From NCBI GenBank assembly GCA_012026655.1, contig JAAILG010000001.1, positions 62,001 through 126,000 on the forward strand: DNA of 64,000 nt, in the 5' to 3' direction. A program made the position numbers and the translations under genes. The DNA comes from Hydrolagus affinis (Eukaryota). This document shows, piece after piece, positions 11,380 to 51,635 of this stretch; the first letter of the stretch is position 1; the number at the start of each line of letters is the position of its first letter. The notes under the pieces were generated by a model. The model made no database searches and was not told the DNA's origin. It saw nothing but the letters and a program-made list of their open reading frames with translations.

Positions 11380-11665
11380 CCCATTATGTCTGTGTTGATG
11401 CTACCTCTCCATTGGATGCTACCGATCATCCAATTTCTTTTTCCCCAGATGGTTTTTCCGGGATTAATAAGTCCTTCCAAAAATTTTAAAATAATAATAA
11501 ATTGGTACTCAATCCACGACTGTTTGTGTGACACTGTTGTGCCCAATAGACTGCTGCATTTTGGCCACAAATTATACAGTCAATTCACTTCACAGTATAT
11601 TCTGTGAAGCGCTTTGAGGCGTCTTGAAGAGCTGCTAAGGTGTTATATCAAATGCAAGGATCATT
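11380..11665 (+). mobile_element. SINE body with Deu-domain 3' segment and L2-type tail
   Basis: CAATCCACGACTGTTTGTGTGACACTGTTGTGCCCAAT..GCTGCATTTTGGCCACAAAT..CAGTCAATTCACTTCACAGT..GTGAAGCGCTTTGAG..TATATCAAATGCAAGGAT; reverse complement of the 44894-45100 copy. Confidence 0.85.
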
Positions 11666-22800: not shown

Positions 22801-23384
22801 CTTATGGTTTTCCAGTTTATAATGTCATCAGAACTCAGACGAGTTGCAGCTCAGTTCCACATTCTCCAAATAATTAAACACGTAATCTCGTCTATTGTTT
22901 CCATGTAATTACTTCAGTGCAACGTGTATACTCATTCTATTTATTCTGGGATGTCTTCCTTTAATTTAATGTTTGTTCAGTTTTTTTTAAAAAAAAATTA
23001 CTTTTTTCCTCCACCCACCGAAAATGCTTTTAAAAGTACTGCTACACTTACAAAGCTGCTTGAATTGTCATGCAACCCATTATTTGAGATTGATCAAATT
23101 TCATTTGATATCAAAGATTGCTGCATTTATCACCTCAAAAGACTGGGAATCTTCCAGCTTTGAAAACACCTAAAATGTTGTTCATCCCATTGCAGAAGCA
23201 GAATTTTTATTTATTTATGTGTTGTGGAATCATGATATCAAATAGAAAAATGCAGACATAGCAACACAAATAAGCACTGGATTCACAAAAATAGTCATGA
23301 AGGTTCTGAAATACCTTTGCTAGATGCTAATGCTAAAAAGGGCCAAAAATTGTTTTTAAATTGTTTTTGAATTAATAAAAATAT

Positions 23385-23510
23385 ATTTACAGTGAATTGA
23401 CAGTATATTTGTGGGAGAAACGCGGCAGCCAATTGTGCACAGCAATGTTCCACAAACAGTTGTGGATTGAAATAATTATTGTTTATTTATGAGGAGTTAT
23501 TATTAGGCAT
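23385..23510 (-). mobile_element. SINE internal fragment (Deu 3' segment)
   Basis: GTGAATTGACAGTATATTTGTGGGAGAAACGCGGCAGCCAATTGTGCACAGCAATGTTCCACAAACAGTTGTGGATTGAAAT; close match to 44978-45060. Confidence 0.85.
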
Positions 23511-29376: not shown

Positions 29377-29396
29377 AATACTACTATGCACTAGTA

Positions 29397-29472
29397 TTAA
29401 TAATAAATAATAATCCTTGCATTTGATATAGCGCTTTCCACATCTTCCAGACATCTCAAAGCGTTTCACAAA
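29397..29472 (-). mobile_element. SINE 3' tail, (TTA)n type
   Basis: TAATAATCCTTGCATTTGATATAGCGCTTTCCACATCTTCCAGACATCTCAAAGCGTTTCAC. Confidence 0.85.
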
Positions 29473-32144
29473 ACATAAAGGGTAAAGGGAAATAGATGGA
29501 AAGAGGACAGCTGAAGGGAAAACATGATAGAGAGAGGAAATAGCGAAAGCATGACATTGGAAAATTAAGTTTTATTTTTACAAATGTTTGTATATGGAGA
29601 AATAGAAACAGTGGAAAATAATGATAGCTGCAGAGAGAGATCTCATACTGAACTGGCATGAGTTCAGTTTGTTACTTTTTTATGACATCCCAGATACCTA
29701 AGGTGCTCAGCACTTTGCGTTACTCTCACTCGATAGAGGACAAGGACATTGATTGACATGCCATCTGGCCACACAGAAGTTACAACGCAATTGCCGACTT
29801 AATGACTGCACCAACCAAATCAGATTAATGGTAGCGTGGGGGTTTCTGTAATCATGGTAAATTGACTAGCAGTTTTTAATGTCACTCCCCAAAATAAATC
29901 TCTCACCTGTAGAGCTATTTTAATGTTTAGTGTGCATTTTAAATCCGAAGCATCAAGCACCAAAAACCAATTAGAGAATTTATTTGCTTGTGTGAATTCT
30001 TTAATGCTATGTCAATAACCTTATACTGCTATGCAATATGGCCTAAAATGCAGCCTTTATTGACTGTCATAAAGTAGCATTAAAAGCAGTGTTACAAACG
30101 AGAGATAACATACTACACAGGCTTTCTTTGCAACAGAAGCAATGTGCTATATACTGTAGAAATCCTCACAGATCAGTTAGCGTATTTACTCTATTTTCAT
30201 ACAAGTGCATTTCAACAGACTTTCCCCACAAGCACAACTGCAAGTATTCCACAGCCACAGCTTTCTGGACAGGTTTTGGCCATTAGCTGGAGTATTTGTT
30301 TCACTCCACTACATAATAAGTCTCTTTAGGTGCCCTTCACCCTTTATGTTAATCCGAGCCTGAATAGGGCTGAGTTTACTGCATCCCAGGCTGCCAATAT
30401 AATAGCAACTGCCAAGAAATAAACTGAACAGGGTTTCAGTGAAAGGCACAGGTGTGTCACACTGTGGGTGTCGGAAATGGACCAGAAGAAATAGTCTGAC
30501 TGGCATCACTTGGTTTCATTATCTTCTCCATAATTAGGCCACAGCTTAGATAGAACTTAACTTGTGCCATATGGGCTGATACTCCAGTGAAACCGACCCC
30601 CCGTGCTGGTGGCAGTCTGTCACAGTGAAGGCTGTCAGTGCTATACTAAGCACAACACATACATTAGCAAAAAAAGGTTCTGCGTCTCCAAGAAATATGT
30701 GATTAAGCTTGAGGTTGCTGTAGAATCTGTAGAATTCAATATAGGCAAAAAAAACCAGCAGTTGTCATTGTTTTTTTTTCAGTTATAACCTTTGAAGAAC
30801 TGAATGGTTACTTTTGAATAACTTTTTCTATCGATTTCTATACAATTCATTTTTAGATATTGAGAGTAAATGAGGAGTAGAAAGGAATTTGTCATTTTCG
30901 GCAGAATTATGCTATTTATTTAGTGTGGGAGTCTTGCAGACAGTGATCCACATTCCTACACTGGTAATCGAATAGTCTATGCAATGGAGAGCACTACTTG
31001 TATGTATTAAAAGCCCCACAGATTCCTGATTAATTAGCTATGTTCATTGGTATATTTTAAAATGAGGTCACAGCTCCGATAGAACAAAATTTAGCATAAT
31101 TTTTTAGTTTAACGCACAATTGGCTAAGACTAGGTGGAATTTCAGACCTACGATTTTGTTCACTCTTTGGTTGAAAACAAGAGCTCACAACTTAGCTGTC
31201 GTTTTGTTCCAAGCTCCAGCGATGTTATTACCACCATGCTGGGAGCCACTAACTATCTACAATAACAGAGCATGATTAGTCTGTTTATTTGACTTTAGTT
31301 CTGTACATACAGAATGGGAAGTCTCAATAGAAGATATATTAATGTTCTCATTACACACATAAATCTAGGTCTTTGAACCGCAGGCCTTCAGGAAATTGGG
31401 ACATTATTCACATAGTTAAATAAGAAAGCGAAAACATTGAATTCCTTTGCTTAAAGGACATCTTATTCCTTTCAATAAATAGTGGAATGGATGGACCCAT
31501 ATCACAAATCAATTTATGTATCAAAGGAGGAAAAATTAGATAAAAATAGTGCACAGTGAGGAGAAACAAAACTCAAACCTGTCTGTCAGCTGCTGTGCAG
31601 AACAAGCCCTTGCCCTTTATAAACCTGTATATAGTTTACATTACTGTCTCCTTGTGGAATTTCAATTGGAAATCATTAAATAAAAGTACTGAAAAAAAGG
31701 TTCCACCTCCTTGTGGAAGCTAAGTTGTAAACTACTGTATTAAATTGAGGACCAGGCAAGTGTAGGTCATTACAAATAGTGCTTAAATTTGGTTTGAGAG
31801 CTCTGTGCTTGTATAACATGAGCTCACACGACTGAACTCCCATAGGCTGAATGCAGGTGCTTATGATGTGGTAAATCATGAACAGAAGTCCAGATCCAAC
31901 AACAATGTGAAAAGTGACTCAGTGACTAGCTGATAGTAGGTTTGCCAGAACAGATTAAAGGATTTGATGAGTTGCTAGTTTGCGGTGGCAAAATAACTAT
32001 GAATAAATGAACTGGAAATTAATTTTGGGGATAAATGTTTTGCAAAATTGGAGGTAATATTGGGAGAGGAGGAATCCTTTAAATAACTCCAGAACCTTAA
32101 CATGAAATTGGTTTGATATAAACGAGGGTAACAATAAGATCCCC

Positions 32145-38970: not shown

Positions 38971-39319
38971 TCAATAGTTTTCTCACTTGACATCTTAAAT
39001 TCAGTCTTAATTTGGAAATCAGTTTTTTTATTTAAGAAATGCAAAAAATGGGCTTCCAAATTAAGACTGAAAGTAAGAATTTTCTATTATTCTGAAGAAT
39101 TTTAAATTTTAAGACAAATTGGTCTTTCAGGCTAAGACTCAGGTGGAATTTGTGGCTAAGTCTTAGAAATCCACCAGGAACATTTAAGGGATGATCGATG
39201 ATATAATGATGAAGTTCAACAATACAGTGAGCCTTATTCATTACTTTATTTTACAGAACGCTTCCACTATAAATATAAGCATTGTTTAGAAGCTCGTAAC
39301 TGAAAAGGAAGGAAACATA

Positions 39320-42442: not shown

Positions 42443-42510
42443 ACTTTGAGACATCTCAGAGACGTGATAAGGCACTATATCAAATGCAAGGATTATTATT
42501 ATTATTATTT
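42443..42510 (+). mobile_element. SINE 3' tail, (TTA)n type
   Basis: CTTTGAGACATCTCAGAGACGTGATAAGGCACTATATCAAATGCAAGGA(TTA)n. Confidence 0.85.
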
Positions 42511-43637
42511 ACTGCTCCATAGGGTCTTAAAATTAGCAAACCTTAATGCAAGGTAGTTCTAAGAATTCTCGTGATACTTCTCACTGGGATTAGTTGGGCC
42601 AATTTAAGACCTGATTTCAAGGTTAATGCTCATTTTTACCAATGGGAGTAAAACTGTCCACTCTATGCATTGTGTTCAAATTTGATCATCATTCTTGCAA
42701 GTAAACATTGATTCTTTGGAAAAGATCCAAAGGATAACCTTGATATTCATGGATCATGTAACACTGTGAGGTTAAAAGAGCTCAACCTACTCTTATTGGA
42801 AAACTGAATATGGAGTGTGGACATAATCCAATTTTTTCAATTATAGACACAATTCATACTGTGACTCTGGAGCCATTCTTTGTGTCACCCAATTGTTCGT
42901 GACAATTGAGGAAGCTATGAGCTGTAGACACCTTGAGTTGTAACTTCTTCACACTTACAAAATGTTAACTTATGGAATGCATTTCTACCTGACACAATAA
43001 TCACTATTTAATTGAAACATTCTGAGAGAAAATAGTTGATTCTTGATTCAATATAGCAACAAGCATGACAAGCTTGACTTGTTAACTTAAATGAGGCAAT
43101 ACACAATTAAAAATGAGCTGTGTGGGTTTTGAATAAGACCAGCTCTGGCCAAATTATTCTCTCATGTTTCAACATTCTTATGCTTTCTAAAATATAATTT
43201 ATTTCCCTTCTTGAAAACCAATCAGACAATGGATCCTTGCGTATATATATATAAATGCTTTAGTTAGTTATACTTTAAATGCACTCTTGTAATTTGCCAT
43301 GGCTTTGAACTGTAGAATTCCCTTTTTGATGATATACTCTATTGCTACAGCATACAAATAACAGAACCTGTCAAGACAGAGCTTTTCACACCTGAGTGAG
43401 CAATCTTGTTCCTAGTAACTTGATACTTAGATGAAGATACTTGTTTATAGTAAACCTTCACACATCCTATATTTGCAGTTTGACAGTATCTTTGTGTCAT
43501 TACTCTATTGACTTCAAATTTTAGTGATTCAGAAAAATTTATCATTAAAAAAAATGTAAAAGTATCAATTAATTGAGTTAAACTTAAAAGTACTACCCAA
43601 TAAAACTAAAAAAAGTAAGTATTCATTTGAAAATCAG

Positions 43638-44893: not shown

Positions 44894-45183
44894 AATAATA
44901 ATAATAATCCTTACATCTGATATAGCGCTTTTCACATCTTATCGATGTTTCAAAACGCTTCACAGAATCTACTGTAAAGTGAATTGACTATATTTGTGGG
45001 CGAAATGCGGCTGCCAATTGCGCACAGCAGTGTCCCACAAACAGTCATGGATTGAAATGACCAATTTTATTATTGTTTGTTTTTTTGGAGGGATTATTAT
45101 TAGGCGTTTGGAGTAAGGAAACTTGCCCAATGTTTCGCCCTGACCTGCCTGGAATCGAGTGCTCTACCCACTGAGTTACAGGG
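44894..45183 (-). mobile_element. tRNA-headed SINE (internally deleted) with Deu 3' segment and (TTA)n tail
   Basis: 5' CCCTGTAACTCAGTGGGTAGAGCAC..CGATTCC head, GGGCAAGTTTCCTTACTCC, GACTGTTTGTGGGACACTGCTGTGCGCAATTGGCAGCCGCATTT, L2-type tail. Confidence 0.9.
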
Positions 45184-45185
45184 TT

Positions 45186-45527
45186 CGCATTTGATACAGC
45201 ATCTTATCATGCCATCGAGACACCTCAAAGCGCTTCACTGGATATACTCTAAAGTGTAGTGGCTGCTATTTTGTGTGTGAAATGCGGCATTACAATTGTG
45301 CACAGAAGTGTCTCACAAACAGTCATGGATTGAGTGACTAAATTATAATTTTAAAAGTATATTTTGGAAGGAAATATTTCCCCTGGAAAGCAATCCAACG
45401 GGTTTCTACTTACTGCTGGGATAAACAGAGACATGTGTGTGTGGAGTAAGGAAACTTGCCTAAGGTTTTGCCCTGACCCACCCAAATCAAACCCAAGTCC
45501 TCTCGTTTGTAAGGCTGTGCTACAGGG
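45186..45527 (-). mobile_element. Second tandem copy of the same SINE family
   Basis: Starts CCCTGTAGC; contains GGCAAGTTTCCTTACTCCACACACAC..CTCTGTTTATCCCAGCAGTAAGTAG, the Deu 3' segment and the GTGAAGCGCTTTGAG..ATCAAATGC tail abutting the previous copy. Confidence 0.9.
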
Positions 45528-50030: not shown

Positions 50031-50049
50031 ACCAATACTGTACAATCTT

Positions 50050-50225
50050 AAACAAAAACAGAAGTTGCTGGGAAAACTCAGCAGTCAGGCAGCATCCATG
50101 GAGAAAGGAAAGTGAGTCAACATTTCAGGTCCACAATCCTTCATCAGAATTGGACCTGCTGAGTTTTCCCAGCAACTTCTGTTTTTGTTTCAGATTTCCG
50201 GCATCTATAGTATTTTGTGTTTTGT
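50050..50225 (-). mobile_element. Penelope-like retroelement-derived inverted-repeat remnant
   Basis: Perfect 35-bp inverted repeat 50050-50084 / 50156-50190. Sequence resembles the recalled shark Penelope terminal repeat (CAGAAAATGCTGGAAATACTCAGCAGGTCAGGCAGCATC...CAGATTTCCAGCATCTGCAG). Flanking direct repeat CCAATACT..ATCTTA. Confidence 0.75.
50115..50151 (-). ncRNA. Degenerate minimal hammerhead ribozyme motif
   Basis: Minus strand AATT-CTGATGA-AGG-ATTGTGGA-CCT-GAAA-T-GTT-GACT: core boxes CUGAUGA and GAAA, stem II AGG/CCU, GUU triplet, imperfect stem I. Confidence 0.6.
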
Positions 50226-51442
50226 CCAATACTATCTTACCCTGTGTGGCTCAGTTTCACAACCAGTTGTAAATTCATTCACCCAGACATCACAACGGCT
50301 AACTAACAATTCCAAAGCATAAAATGGAGACAAAATGATGAATAGACAATAAGTATAGATAGGACAAGTGATGTCCTTCTTTAGAATACGTAGCAACTTC
50401 AATATGAACAACAATCTAGTGACGCAGACTTCAAAGTACAATTTTAATCATTGTACTTTTTCTGCTATACTGCAATGTATGTATTTAATTCCAAGGGTAT
50501 AGTTTTCAAAATATGCATATATTATAATTCAGGAACAGCAGGAAGCCCAGGCTAAATATTCGCCTTCAAGTGTCCCATACACATTTCCTATCATGTACCT
50601 CAGATGTCCAGAGAACAATTATCTTTTAAGTGATAATCTCATAACACAATTTGAACACCTGTGTTATAACATGCGCGCTGCTGTATTTTTAATATTAAAC
50701 AGATCAGTTTGCCTCACTAATGTGGATAATGATGTTTTCAGTTTCAGTTTTTATGTTTTATAAATGCTCAGTAATGCATTTGAAATGTTTTGAAGTGAAT
50801 AAATAAGTTTCTGCTAATTTCCTGGTGTAATATTGCAGTCACATTATTGCACCATGTTGAGTACTTACCTCATAGGTAGATCTTCTGTAAAATGTTACAA
50901 AAGATCTAAGTGCTTTCAGCAGCACAAAGCACGGTAACATCAAAAAAAAACAAGCCATGATTGCAGGATTGGGACCTTAGTGTATCATTGCCTGGCCAGT
51001 GAGAAAGGGGATTTATTGAGGGAAAAACATCATTTATGACCTCTCCAGCTTTGCAAAACTGTTCTATAACTACTTCAGTGACACATGAACATCAACTTGT
51101 TGGTATGTGTGAGACCATCTTGGAAGAGATGGAGGTGCATGGCCGGTTCCATTTGTGGACAGCAAAAATCAACCATCTGTGCACAGTTTTGTGCCTTGTG
51201 TGGAAAGGACATGGGCTGGATGTTCTGTAGCCTATGGAGAAAGGAATTGGGGAGGACGACTAACGGCAAATCCCAAATCAGACTAATCAACAGAAACATA
51301 GGAATGCTTAGAACTGTGACTTGACCAAATTGAAGTGAGGAATTTGGAGCCATCAAAGGCCTACAGTGGGGTTCAGCAGAGCCCTGTTGAGGGGCTAGAG
51401 GTGAGGTTCTCAGTTGCTCATGGATTTCATTGTAACTGTGCA

Positions 51443-51635
51443 GTCCTGCATAGTGGTTAGCGCACTCGTCTCGCCAGCAAGCAAGAGCACCCAGGTTCGA
51501 TTCCCAGGTGAGGCAGGTGAAATCTTAGGCACGTTTCCTTACTCTAAACACACACACCTCTGTTTACCTAGCAGTAAGTAGGGAACCTGGTTCTTAGTCG
51601 TTTGGTGGATCACTTTCTGGGTGTAATAATTATTT
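51443..51635 (+). mobile_element. SINE 5' part: tRNA-derived Pol III head plus central domain
   Basis: A box TAGTGGTTAG (51451), B box GGTTCGATTCC (51494-51504), then AGGCACGTTTCCTTACTC..ACACACAC.CTCTGTTTACCTAGCAGTAAGTAGGGAACC as in 45410-45470. Confidence 0.85.

Follow-up and report, generated by a model that had tools for sequence, protein, structure and literature searches.

The stretch of Hydrolagus affinis DNA analysed here (64,000 nucleotides; hereafter the window) contains two arms, 50050–50084 and 50156–50190, which are exact reverse complements over 35 bp and enclose a 71-nt loop. As the minus strand of this loop carries the letters of a hammerhead ribozyme, the locus raises the question of whether the hairpin is a unit that moves or functions as a whole, or is the product of some other event. 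A first-pass annotation had described the perfect hairpin and the minus-strand motif, both of which were verified, and had proposed a fold-back element of Penelope-like origin. We conclude with high confidence that the locus is a dead head-to-head insertion of an EN+ Penelope-like element (PLE), tailed on one arm only and flanked by a 14-bp TSD, likely made by two-ended priming, whose hammerhead is predicted to be inactive.

Structure of the insertion

The 35-bp inverted repeat was the longest perfect one at a spacing of <1 kb within the window, the runner-up having 18-bp arms. The element had been bounded at 50050–50190, but its right arm runs on into a tail of ~34 nt and the whole element occupies 50050–50225 (176 bp). 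It consists of two 5′-truncated pseudo-LTR (pLTR) pieces, head to head, with a 14-bp TSD. Pieces were placed by alignment to the family majority sequence and numbered with the hammerhead C3 as +1, which gave the following features:

50032–50050, plus strand: left TSD copy, its 14-bp unit split by 5 extra bases at ~50040–50044 (from the sequence)
50050–50153, minus strand: arm 1, 5′-truncated pseudo-LTR piece without tail, family −5 to +99 (alignment)
50115–50151, minus strand: decayed minimal type I hammerhead (motif; numbering as in excerpts of PMC4209133)
50152–50153, no strand: head-to-head junction with a 1-nt overlap (gap −1), genome-unique (genome pattern search)
50153–50225, plus strand: arm 2, inverted 5′-truncated piece, family +62 to ~+134 (alignment)
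50191–50225, plus strand: ~34-nt Penelope tail, on arm 2 only (family 3′-end groups)
50226–50239, plus strand: right TSD copy, 14 bp (from the sequence)

The two pieces join at their 5′ ends, where they have one base in common, and arm 1 starts at the 5′-end hot spot of the family. Positions −5 to +61 were present only in arm 1 and +100 to +134 only in arm 2, and the stretch held by both pieces, +65 to +99, is the 35-bp hairpin. The last A of the left TSD copy is common to the TSD and the element end. No PLE coding sequence was found within the window. There was no tandem array at the locus, which holds a single head-to-head insertion with one hammerhead; a non-LTR retrozyme, described in excerpts of bioRxiv 10.64898/2026.07.22.740005 as head-to-tail tandem units with a hammerhead in each, was rejected on this organisation.

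The inverted repeat grows to 41 bp at 98% identity because target bases outside the tail-less arm (50044–50048) match the next bases of the template (50192–50196), over 5 nt after one mismatch. Either the match is fortuitous or primer and template paired there, at the inner start site.

Two other kinds of repeat were observed in the window. A second perfect inverted repeat at 39000–39071, with 18-bp arms and a 36-nt loop, was unrelated to the PLE family. Repeat pieces 76–86% alike were found in both orientations at 11455–11665, 23381–23508, 29384–29477, 42444–42522, 44894–45468 and 51520–51581; they belong to a family that looks like a SINE and abounds in the loci that were retrieved.

Family membership and coding sequence

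The 191-base region gave 3,337 first-look candidates in the 1.1-Gb genome, 40 of which were scored, and a 29-nt arm pattern had 2,022 genome matches. The element at 50050–50225 is a single dead Penelope-type insertion, one of thousands of related copies in the genome.

Twenty long family copies were retrieved for ORF comparison. Sense-extended copies showed an upstream pyrimidine-rich 3′ UTR and then the end of an ORF encoding a CxxxxCxxC linker and a GIY-YIG-type motif, with VYCI..FIGET at the C-terminus. Pfam GIY-YIG scored this C-terminus at 14.8 bits (E 0.036), under the cut-off, and the homolog P0009 at 21.8 against a cut-off of 22.6; the closest named homologs were ray and shark proteins of 58–62% identity. 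Long copies aligned to an RT-containing protein over most of its length and had a YIDD motif. One ORF piece matched Pfam RVT_1 at 30.5 bits (cut-off 29.6) and two pieces had no Pfam match. The Penelope-like origin suggested at first pass is borne out by these long copies, which lead into RT and GIY-YIG-type coding sequence. A motif search placed the repeat 3′ of the ORF in 16/19 long copies; in L220 the repeat, tail included, lay directly 5′ of the ORF start, as expected of a pLTR. The coding sequence and these two positions together identify the repeat as the pLTR of an EN+ PLE.

Excerpts of PMC8557442 give a CxxxxCxxC-type linker upstream of the nuclease as common to Neptune and Nematis. This Zn-finger-like linker is a mark of these two and not of Penelope/Poseidon. 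It was found upstream of the nuclease in the family ORF, and by this sequence motif the family is likely of Neptune type.

One ray protein, P0005, annotated as an isoform of 'divergent protein kinase domain 1C', shared 59% identity with the PLE C-terminus across 99% of the query. A PLE fragment was probably incorporated into this gene model.

Head-to-head copies across the genome

A sample was drawn from the 2,022 arm-pattern matches: 97 of the first 100 listed resolved into 86 loci, including 50050–50225. There were 44 head-to-head copies, 27 solo copies with a tail and 13 without, and two were set aside, each having one tail (L115, with an internal insertion, and L168, with a 61-nt gap). Large contigs and little-mutated copies are over-represented in the sample, and a two-armed copy had about twice the chance of being counted; the true head-to-head share is therefore ~35% to 52% and may be nearer the lower figure. 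The tail was on exactly one arm, on either side, in 44/44 sampled head-to-head copies (p ~1e-13 against 50:50). The 3′ ends of the sampled loci fell into two groups, at ~+98 to +102 and +131 to +133. TSDs of 9–17 bp (mode 14) were found in 50/84 sampled elements, compared with 0/84 mismatched-flank controls.

A search with the junction pattern of 50050–50225 returned one genome match, the locus itself, and 42 different junction coordinates were found among the 44 sampled head-to-head copies. Each copy is therefore a separate insertion event. This bears on the fold-back element of the first-pass annotation, a non-autonomous, ribozyme-bearing unit (MITE- or retrozyme-like) that would move as arm-loop-arm. 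The genome count of the arm-loop-arm layout that had been suggested did return 64 loci with exact 17-bp inverted arms 82–112 nt apart, and non-autonomous PLE derivatives are described (excerpts of bioRxiv 10.64898/2026.07.22.740005). Such a unit is nevertheless extremely unlikely given the unique junction, the distinct junctions of other copies, the asymmetric ends with a tail on one arm, the lack of a tandem array at the locus and TSDs that vary in length. A MITE or fold-back element with a shared internal junction and symmetric termini was rejected on the unique junction and the asymmetric ends.

A second alternative keeps the same element and the same decay but has the inverted arm arise by fold-back, with an antisense template or the first cDNA being self-primed. 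Self-priming was put forward for rotifer PLEs from junction palindromes, according to excerpts of PMC3846280, and some junctions of the present family were palindromic or had nested arms (e.g. L157, L166, L174). At 50050–50225, however, each arm holds a stretch missing from the other, so neither was copied from the other and a simple cDNA snap-back is excluded. Neither arm contained the other, by at least 10 nt, in 20/44 sampled head-to-head copies, and the one-arm tail on either side also weighs against this route, which we consider improbable.

Both arms belonged to the same subfamily in 40/41 scorable head-to-head copies, which could also reflect subfamilies active at different times. The sole copy that scored as mixed, L188 (2:1 against 1:4 diagnostic sites), is weak and is a candidate two-template insertion.

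In L1 twin priming, each of two target ends primes a cDNA, the two cDNAs are joined to give an inversion with a TSD, and each part is copied from a different stretch of the RNA. The present family differs in that both arms covered the same stretch in 41/44 sampled head-to-head copies. In six loci (L156, L172, L136, L082, L087 and L088) the inverted arm barely exceeded the tail and the arms were non-overlapping, as in classic twin priming. Long head-to-head insertions with ORF sequence in one or both arms were also observed (L105:2550-5040, L206, L217 and L222), giving the architecture at kilobase scale.

Some matches were mirror-image duplicates: G000:C4288 (L098/L099), C626 (L039/L040) and C7797. 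Over 5.6 kb, L098 and L099 shared 99.86% identity, and they lie symmetrically around the middle of the contig; this contig is probably a whole palindrome produced by the assembly.

Identity of the two arms

The perfection of the hairpin could in principle reflect gene conversion or selection for a host hairpin RNA, serving as a small-RNA source or an editing substrate. Either strand folds into a 35-bp stem of ~−72 to −75 kcal/mol, and Rfam gave weak miRNA-precursor matches at the region (25.5 and 23.7 bits), which are however far under their cut-offs (85 and 53.5). In the 43 other head-to-head copies, the arms of a copy differed from each other at 5.1% of non-CpG sites outside the selection pattern, while each arm was 3.7% off the majority and 1.0% of deviations were shared. 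From this pattern it follows that the arms drift independently, and that 35 identical bases are expected in ~17% of cases. Arm homogenisation was thereby ruled out as a candidate. Over the 35 bp both arms of 50050–50225 are the subfamily majority, which means that nothing needed homogenising; they stayed identical because they are without CpG. Arms identical over +64 to +96 were also found in 8/32 other copies, a figure inflated by the selection pattern. Upkeep of the hairpin by conversion or selection is therefore very unlikely.

The hammerhead of 50050–50225 and of the family

On the minus strand of the copy, CTGATGA was found at 50147–50141 and GAAA-TGTT-GACT at 50126–50115. The parts of the motif and its substitutions relative to subfamily B were as follows, all on the minus strand:

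50151–50148 and 50118–50115: stem I
50147–50141: core CTGATGA
50140: extra A
50139–50135 and 50131–50127: stem II
50126–50123: GAAA
50123–50120: dimer helix III
between 50119 and 50118: predicted cut site
50150: substitution in stem I
50143: substitution at free N7, CpG
50137: substitution in stem II
50135: substitution in stem II, CpG
50127: substitution in the G10.1-C11.1 pair, CpG
50122: substitution in helix III, CpG

Of the 37 positions of the motif, six are thus substituted in this copy. Four of the six are at CpG, and all 4/4 CpG cytosines of the motif are changed (N7, stem II, G10.1-C11.1 and helix III). The change of GAAAC to GAAAT had been read as CpG decay, and the substitution at 50122 is indeed at a CpG. 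Two G>A changes give A-C mismatches in stem I, where a mismatch had also been noted earlier, and in stem II. Position 10.1-11.1 is G-U, 15.2-16.2 is UG and helix III has two G-U pairs. The catalytic core (C3 U4 G5 A6 N7 G8 A9 / G12 A13 A14 A15.1 / U16.1 H17) is complete and the extra nucleotide after A9 is also present.

Folding gave the target hammerhead structure +1.8 kcal/mol in this copy, compared with −8.2 and −6.6 kcal/mol in two intact copies, and the helix III duplex +0.2 compared with −4.1 kcal/mol. When the entire minus-strand transcript was folded, the helices of the hammerhead had a probability of 0.0, and the 71-nt loop folded alone had a z of −0.87 and no hammerhead fold. On these models the mutated ribozyme is predicted to be inactive, as the first-pass suspicion of a crippled copy would have it.

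At the family level, the intact 33-nt core pattern had 1,273 exact genome matches and the reversed control had 0, so the motif is not due to chance. The majority sequence of subfamily B has the min-HHR fold, with stem I AGUU/GACU, an unpaired A after A9 and stem II GGGUC/GACCC. Its ACGU is self-complementary, and helix III can form only between two molecules; the minimal, dimer-type hammerhead that had been proposed thus holds for the family. Two details of that proposal were corrected. The stem II register AGG..CCT exists only because of the CpG change at 50127, and the stem I state given as repaired, AGUU/AACU, is not that of the family.

The core, stem II, G10.1-C11.1 and the palindrome were jointly intact in 20/70 sampled arms, and decay among these 70 arms was fastest at CpG positions. 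Stem covariation had been put forward as a check; no double-sided stem II change was found among the 70 arms, and there was one one-sided subfamily change, C-G to U-G. This is as expected of neutrally decaying copies of few masters. A search for divergent hammerhead cores returned almost only mutated copies of this family, and no other hammerhead family for covariation, among the matches listed (the first 100 of 269), which leaves the covariation test low in power.

Rfam, also named at first pass as a check, returned no hammerhead in the region, or at gathering level in the window. It likewise returned none for an intact family copy, so its blank at 50050–50225 is uninformative.

5′ ends and the template RNA

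Of the arms in the sampled loci that reach +3, 54/78 ended within −6 to +3, compared with 7.7% per 10-nt window elsewhere, and the 5′ ends of the family were scattered over ~10 nt. In a DNA contig run, which may be the source of the assembly, the main loose ends were at −4 to −2 (104, 139 and 151 contigs). No shared sequence upstream of −4 was present in 52 arms (3 more were not anchorable), and a spliced upstream exon behind the pile-up was rejected on this ground. No clear signal of a cap-derived extra G was found at the junctions, and poly(A) reads of another organism in which the family is present showed neither starts nor ends of molecules accumulating at any point of an intact copy.

The −5 to +1 sequence of the family fits the initiator consensus YYANWYY, and an acceptor-like pyrimidine tract with CAG lies at the 5′ edge of its hammerhead. 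In excerpts of PMC4209133 the hammerhead 5′ edge in D. virilis is an intron end and not a start site, and PMC2377424, also in excerpt, places the Drosophila Penelope promoter inside the pLTR. In the literature searched, neither this cartilaginous-fish family nor the 5′-end pile-up at the ribozyme edge was described; Fig. S2 of PMC11167929 (genomic coverage) could show the pile-up.

Arms ending at the predicted cut, +27 to +33, numbered 4/109 (0.005 per nt at risk), and those ending at +34 to +60 numbered 10/119 (0.003 per nt). Self-cleaved RNA as the template was rejected, these ends being too few to establish an excess. A stall at the ribozyme stem, which would give ends near +33, was also rejected as none such was seen. 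It appears reasonably probable that the template RNA begins where the hammerhead does, at its 5′ edge, and had not undergone self-cleavage.

Comparison with known elements

PLE insertions with an inverted 5′-truncated copy, a 30–40-bp tail at one end and a TSD are described in excerpts of PMC3846280 and PMC8557442; the architecture and ribozyme type of 50050–50225 are already published. Head-to-head 5′-truncated pLTRs, a ~34-nt tail at one end, a TSD, a pLTR hammerhead and, in long copies, an RT with a C-terminal GIY-YIG-type motif are shared with EN+ PLEs (Pen2a_Av of Adineta vaga, PMC3846280; PMC8557442; Penelope of D. virilis, PMC2377424; all in excerpt). Unlike the EN+ PLE insertions in those excerpts, 50050–50225 has no ORF between the arms and is a minimal case of 176 bp, and its 14-bp TSD compares with 8–10 bp in the rotifer examples of PMC3846280.

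The family resembles the metazoan PLE min-HHRs in excerpts of PMC4209133 in its conserved core, the extra nucleotide between 9 and 10.1, G10.1-C11.1, a palindromic 15.2-16.2 (CG), a short stem I and the lack of a monomer stem III, while its stem II is 5 bp compared with 7–8 bp in Schistosoma. The copy at 50050–50225 departs from these ribozymes at 10.1-11.1 and 15.2-16.2 and by an A-C mismatch in each stem. Cleavage by min-HHRs is poor or dependent on protein even when they are intact, according to excerpts of PMC11167929 and PMC4209133.

The family resembles PAc (Poseidon of Anolis carolinensis; PMC11167929, in excerpt) in having, downstream of the hammerhead, two internal RT start sites between which the tail lies. 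The PAc ORF begins inside the hammerhead, with the start sites 111–118 nt into it, whereas in the present family they immediately precede the apparent start of the ORF (L220). A further difference is the Zn-finger-like linker of the present family.

Proposed mechanism

In vitro, PAc cuts both target strands and extends both, its RT starts at two internal sites that mark the limits of the tail, and uncleaved RNA serves as the main template (excerpts of PMC11167929). A two-strand cut, priming at two sites and joining of the cDNAs is the order of events that we favour for 50050–50225, with fair confidence. Four results bear on it: the tail on exactly one arm, arms neither of which contains the other, the common subfamily of the two arms, and 5′ ends that cluster at the ribozyme edge with few at the predicted cut. 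The element protein would cut both target strands ~14 bp apart. One 3′ end would begin reverse transcription at the inner site (~+99) and run to the RNA 5′ end at ~−5, and the second would begin at the outer site (~+133) and halt at +62. The two cDNA ends would then be joined head to head, the 35-bp hairpin being the +65 to +99 stretch copied by both cDNAs, and neutral decay would have followed the insertion.

For the family we lean slightly towards a more general model, in which the RNA starts at the first base of the hammerhead and one protein dimer primes both ends on uncleaved RNA, always one per fixed site, so that the thousands of short copies may be fossil traces of how PLEs replicate. 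If true, strong-stop-like cDNAs of 100 and 135 nt would be expected, and a single step would account for the inverted pLTR, for a tail at one end only and for the scarcity of ends at the ribozyme cut.

Implications

The locus at 50050–50225 matters little in itself, being one decayed copy among thousands. The statistics of its family bear on how PLEs form inverted pLTRs and a tail, and on the role of the hammerhead. The strict restriction of the tail to one arm, the lack of nesting between arms and the sharp 5′ limit at the ribozyme edge yield predictions testable in the in vitro PLE system. For annotation, Rfam overlooks these minimal hammerheads even when they are intact, and head-to-head PLE insertions can pass for MITEs or miRNA hairpins.
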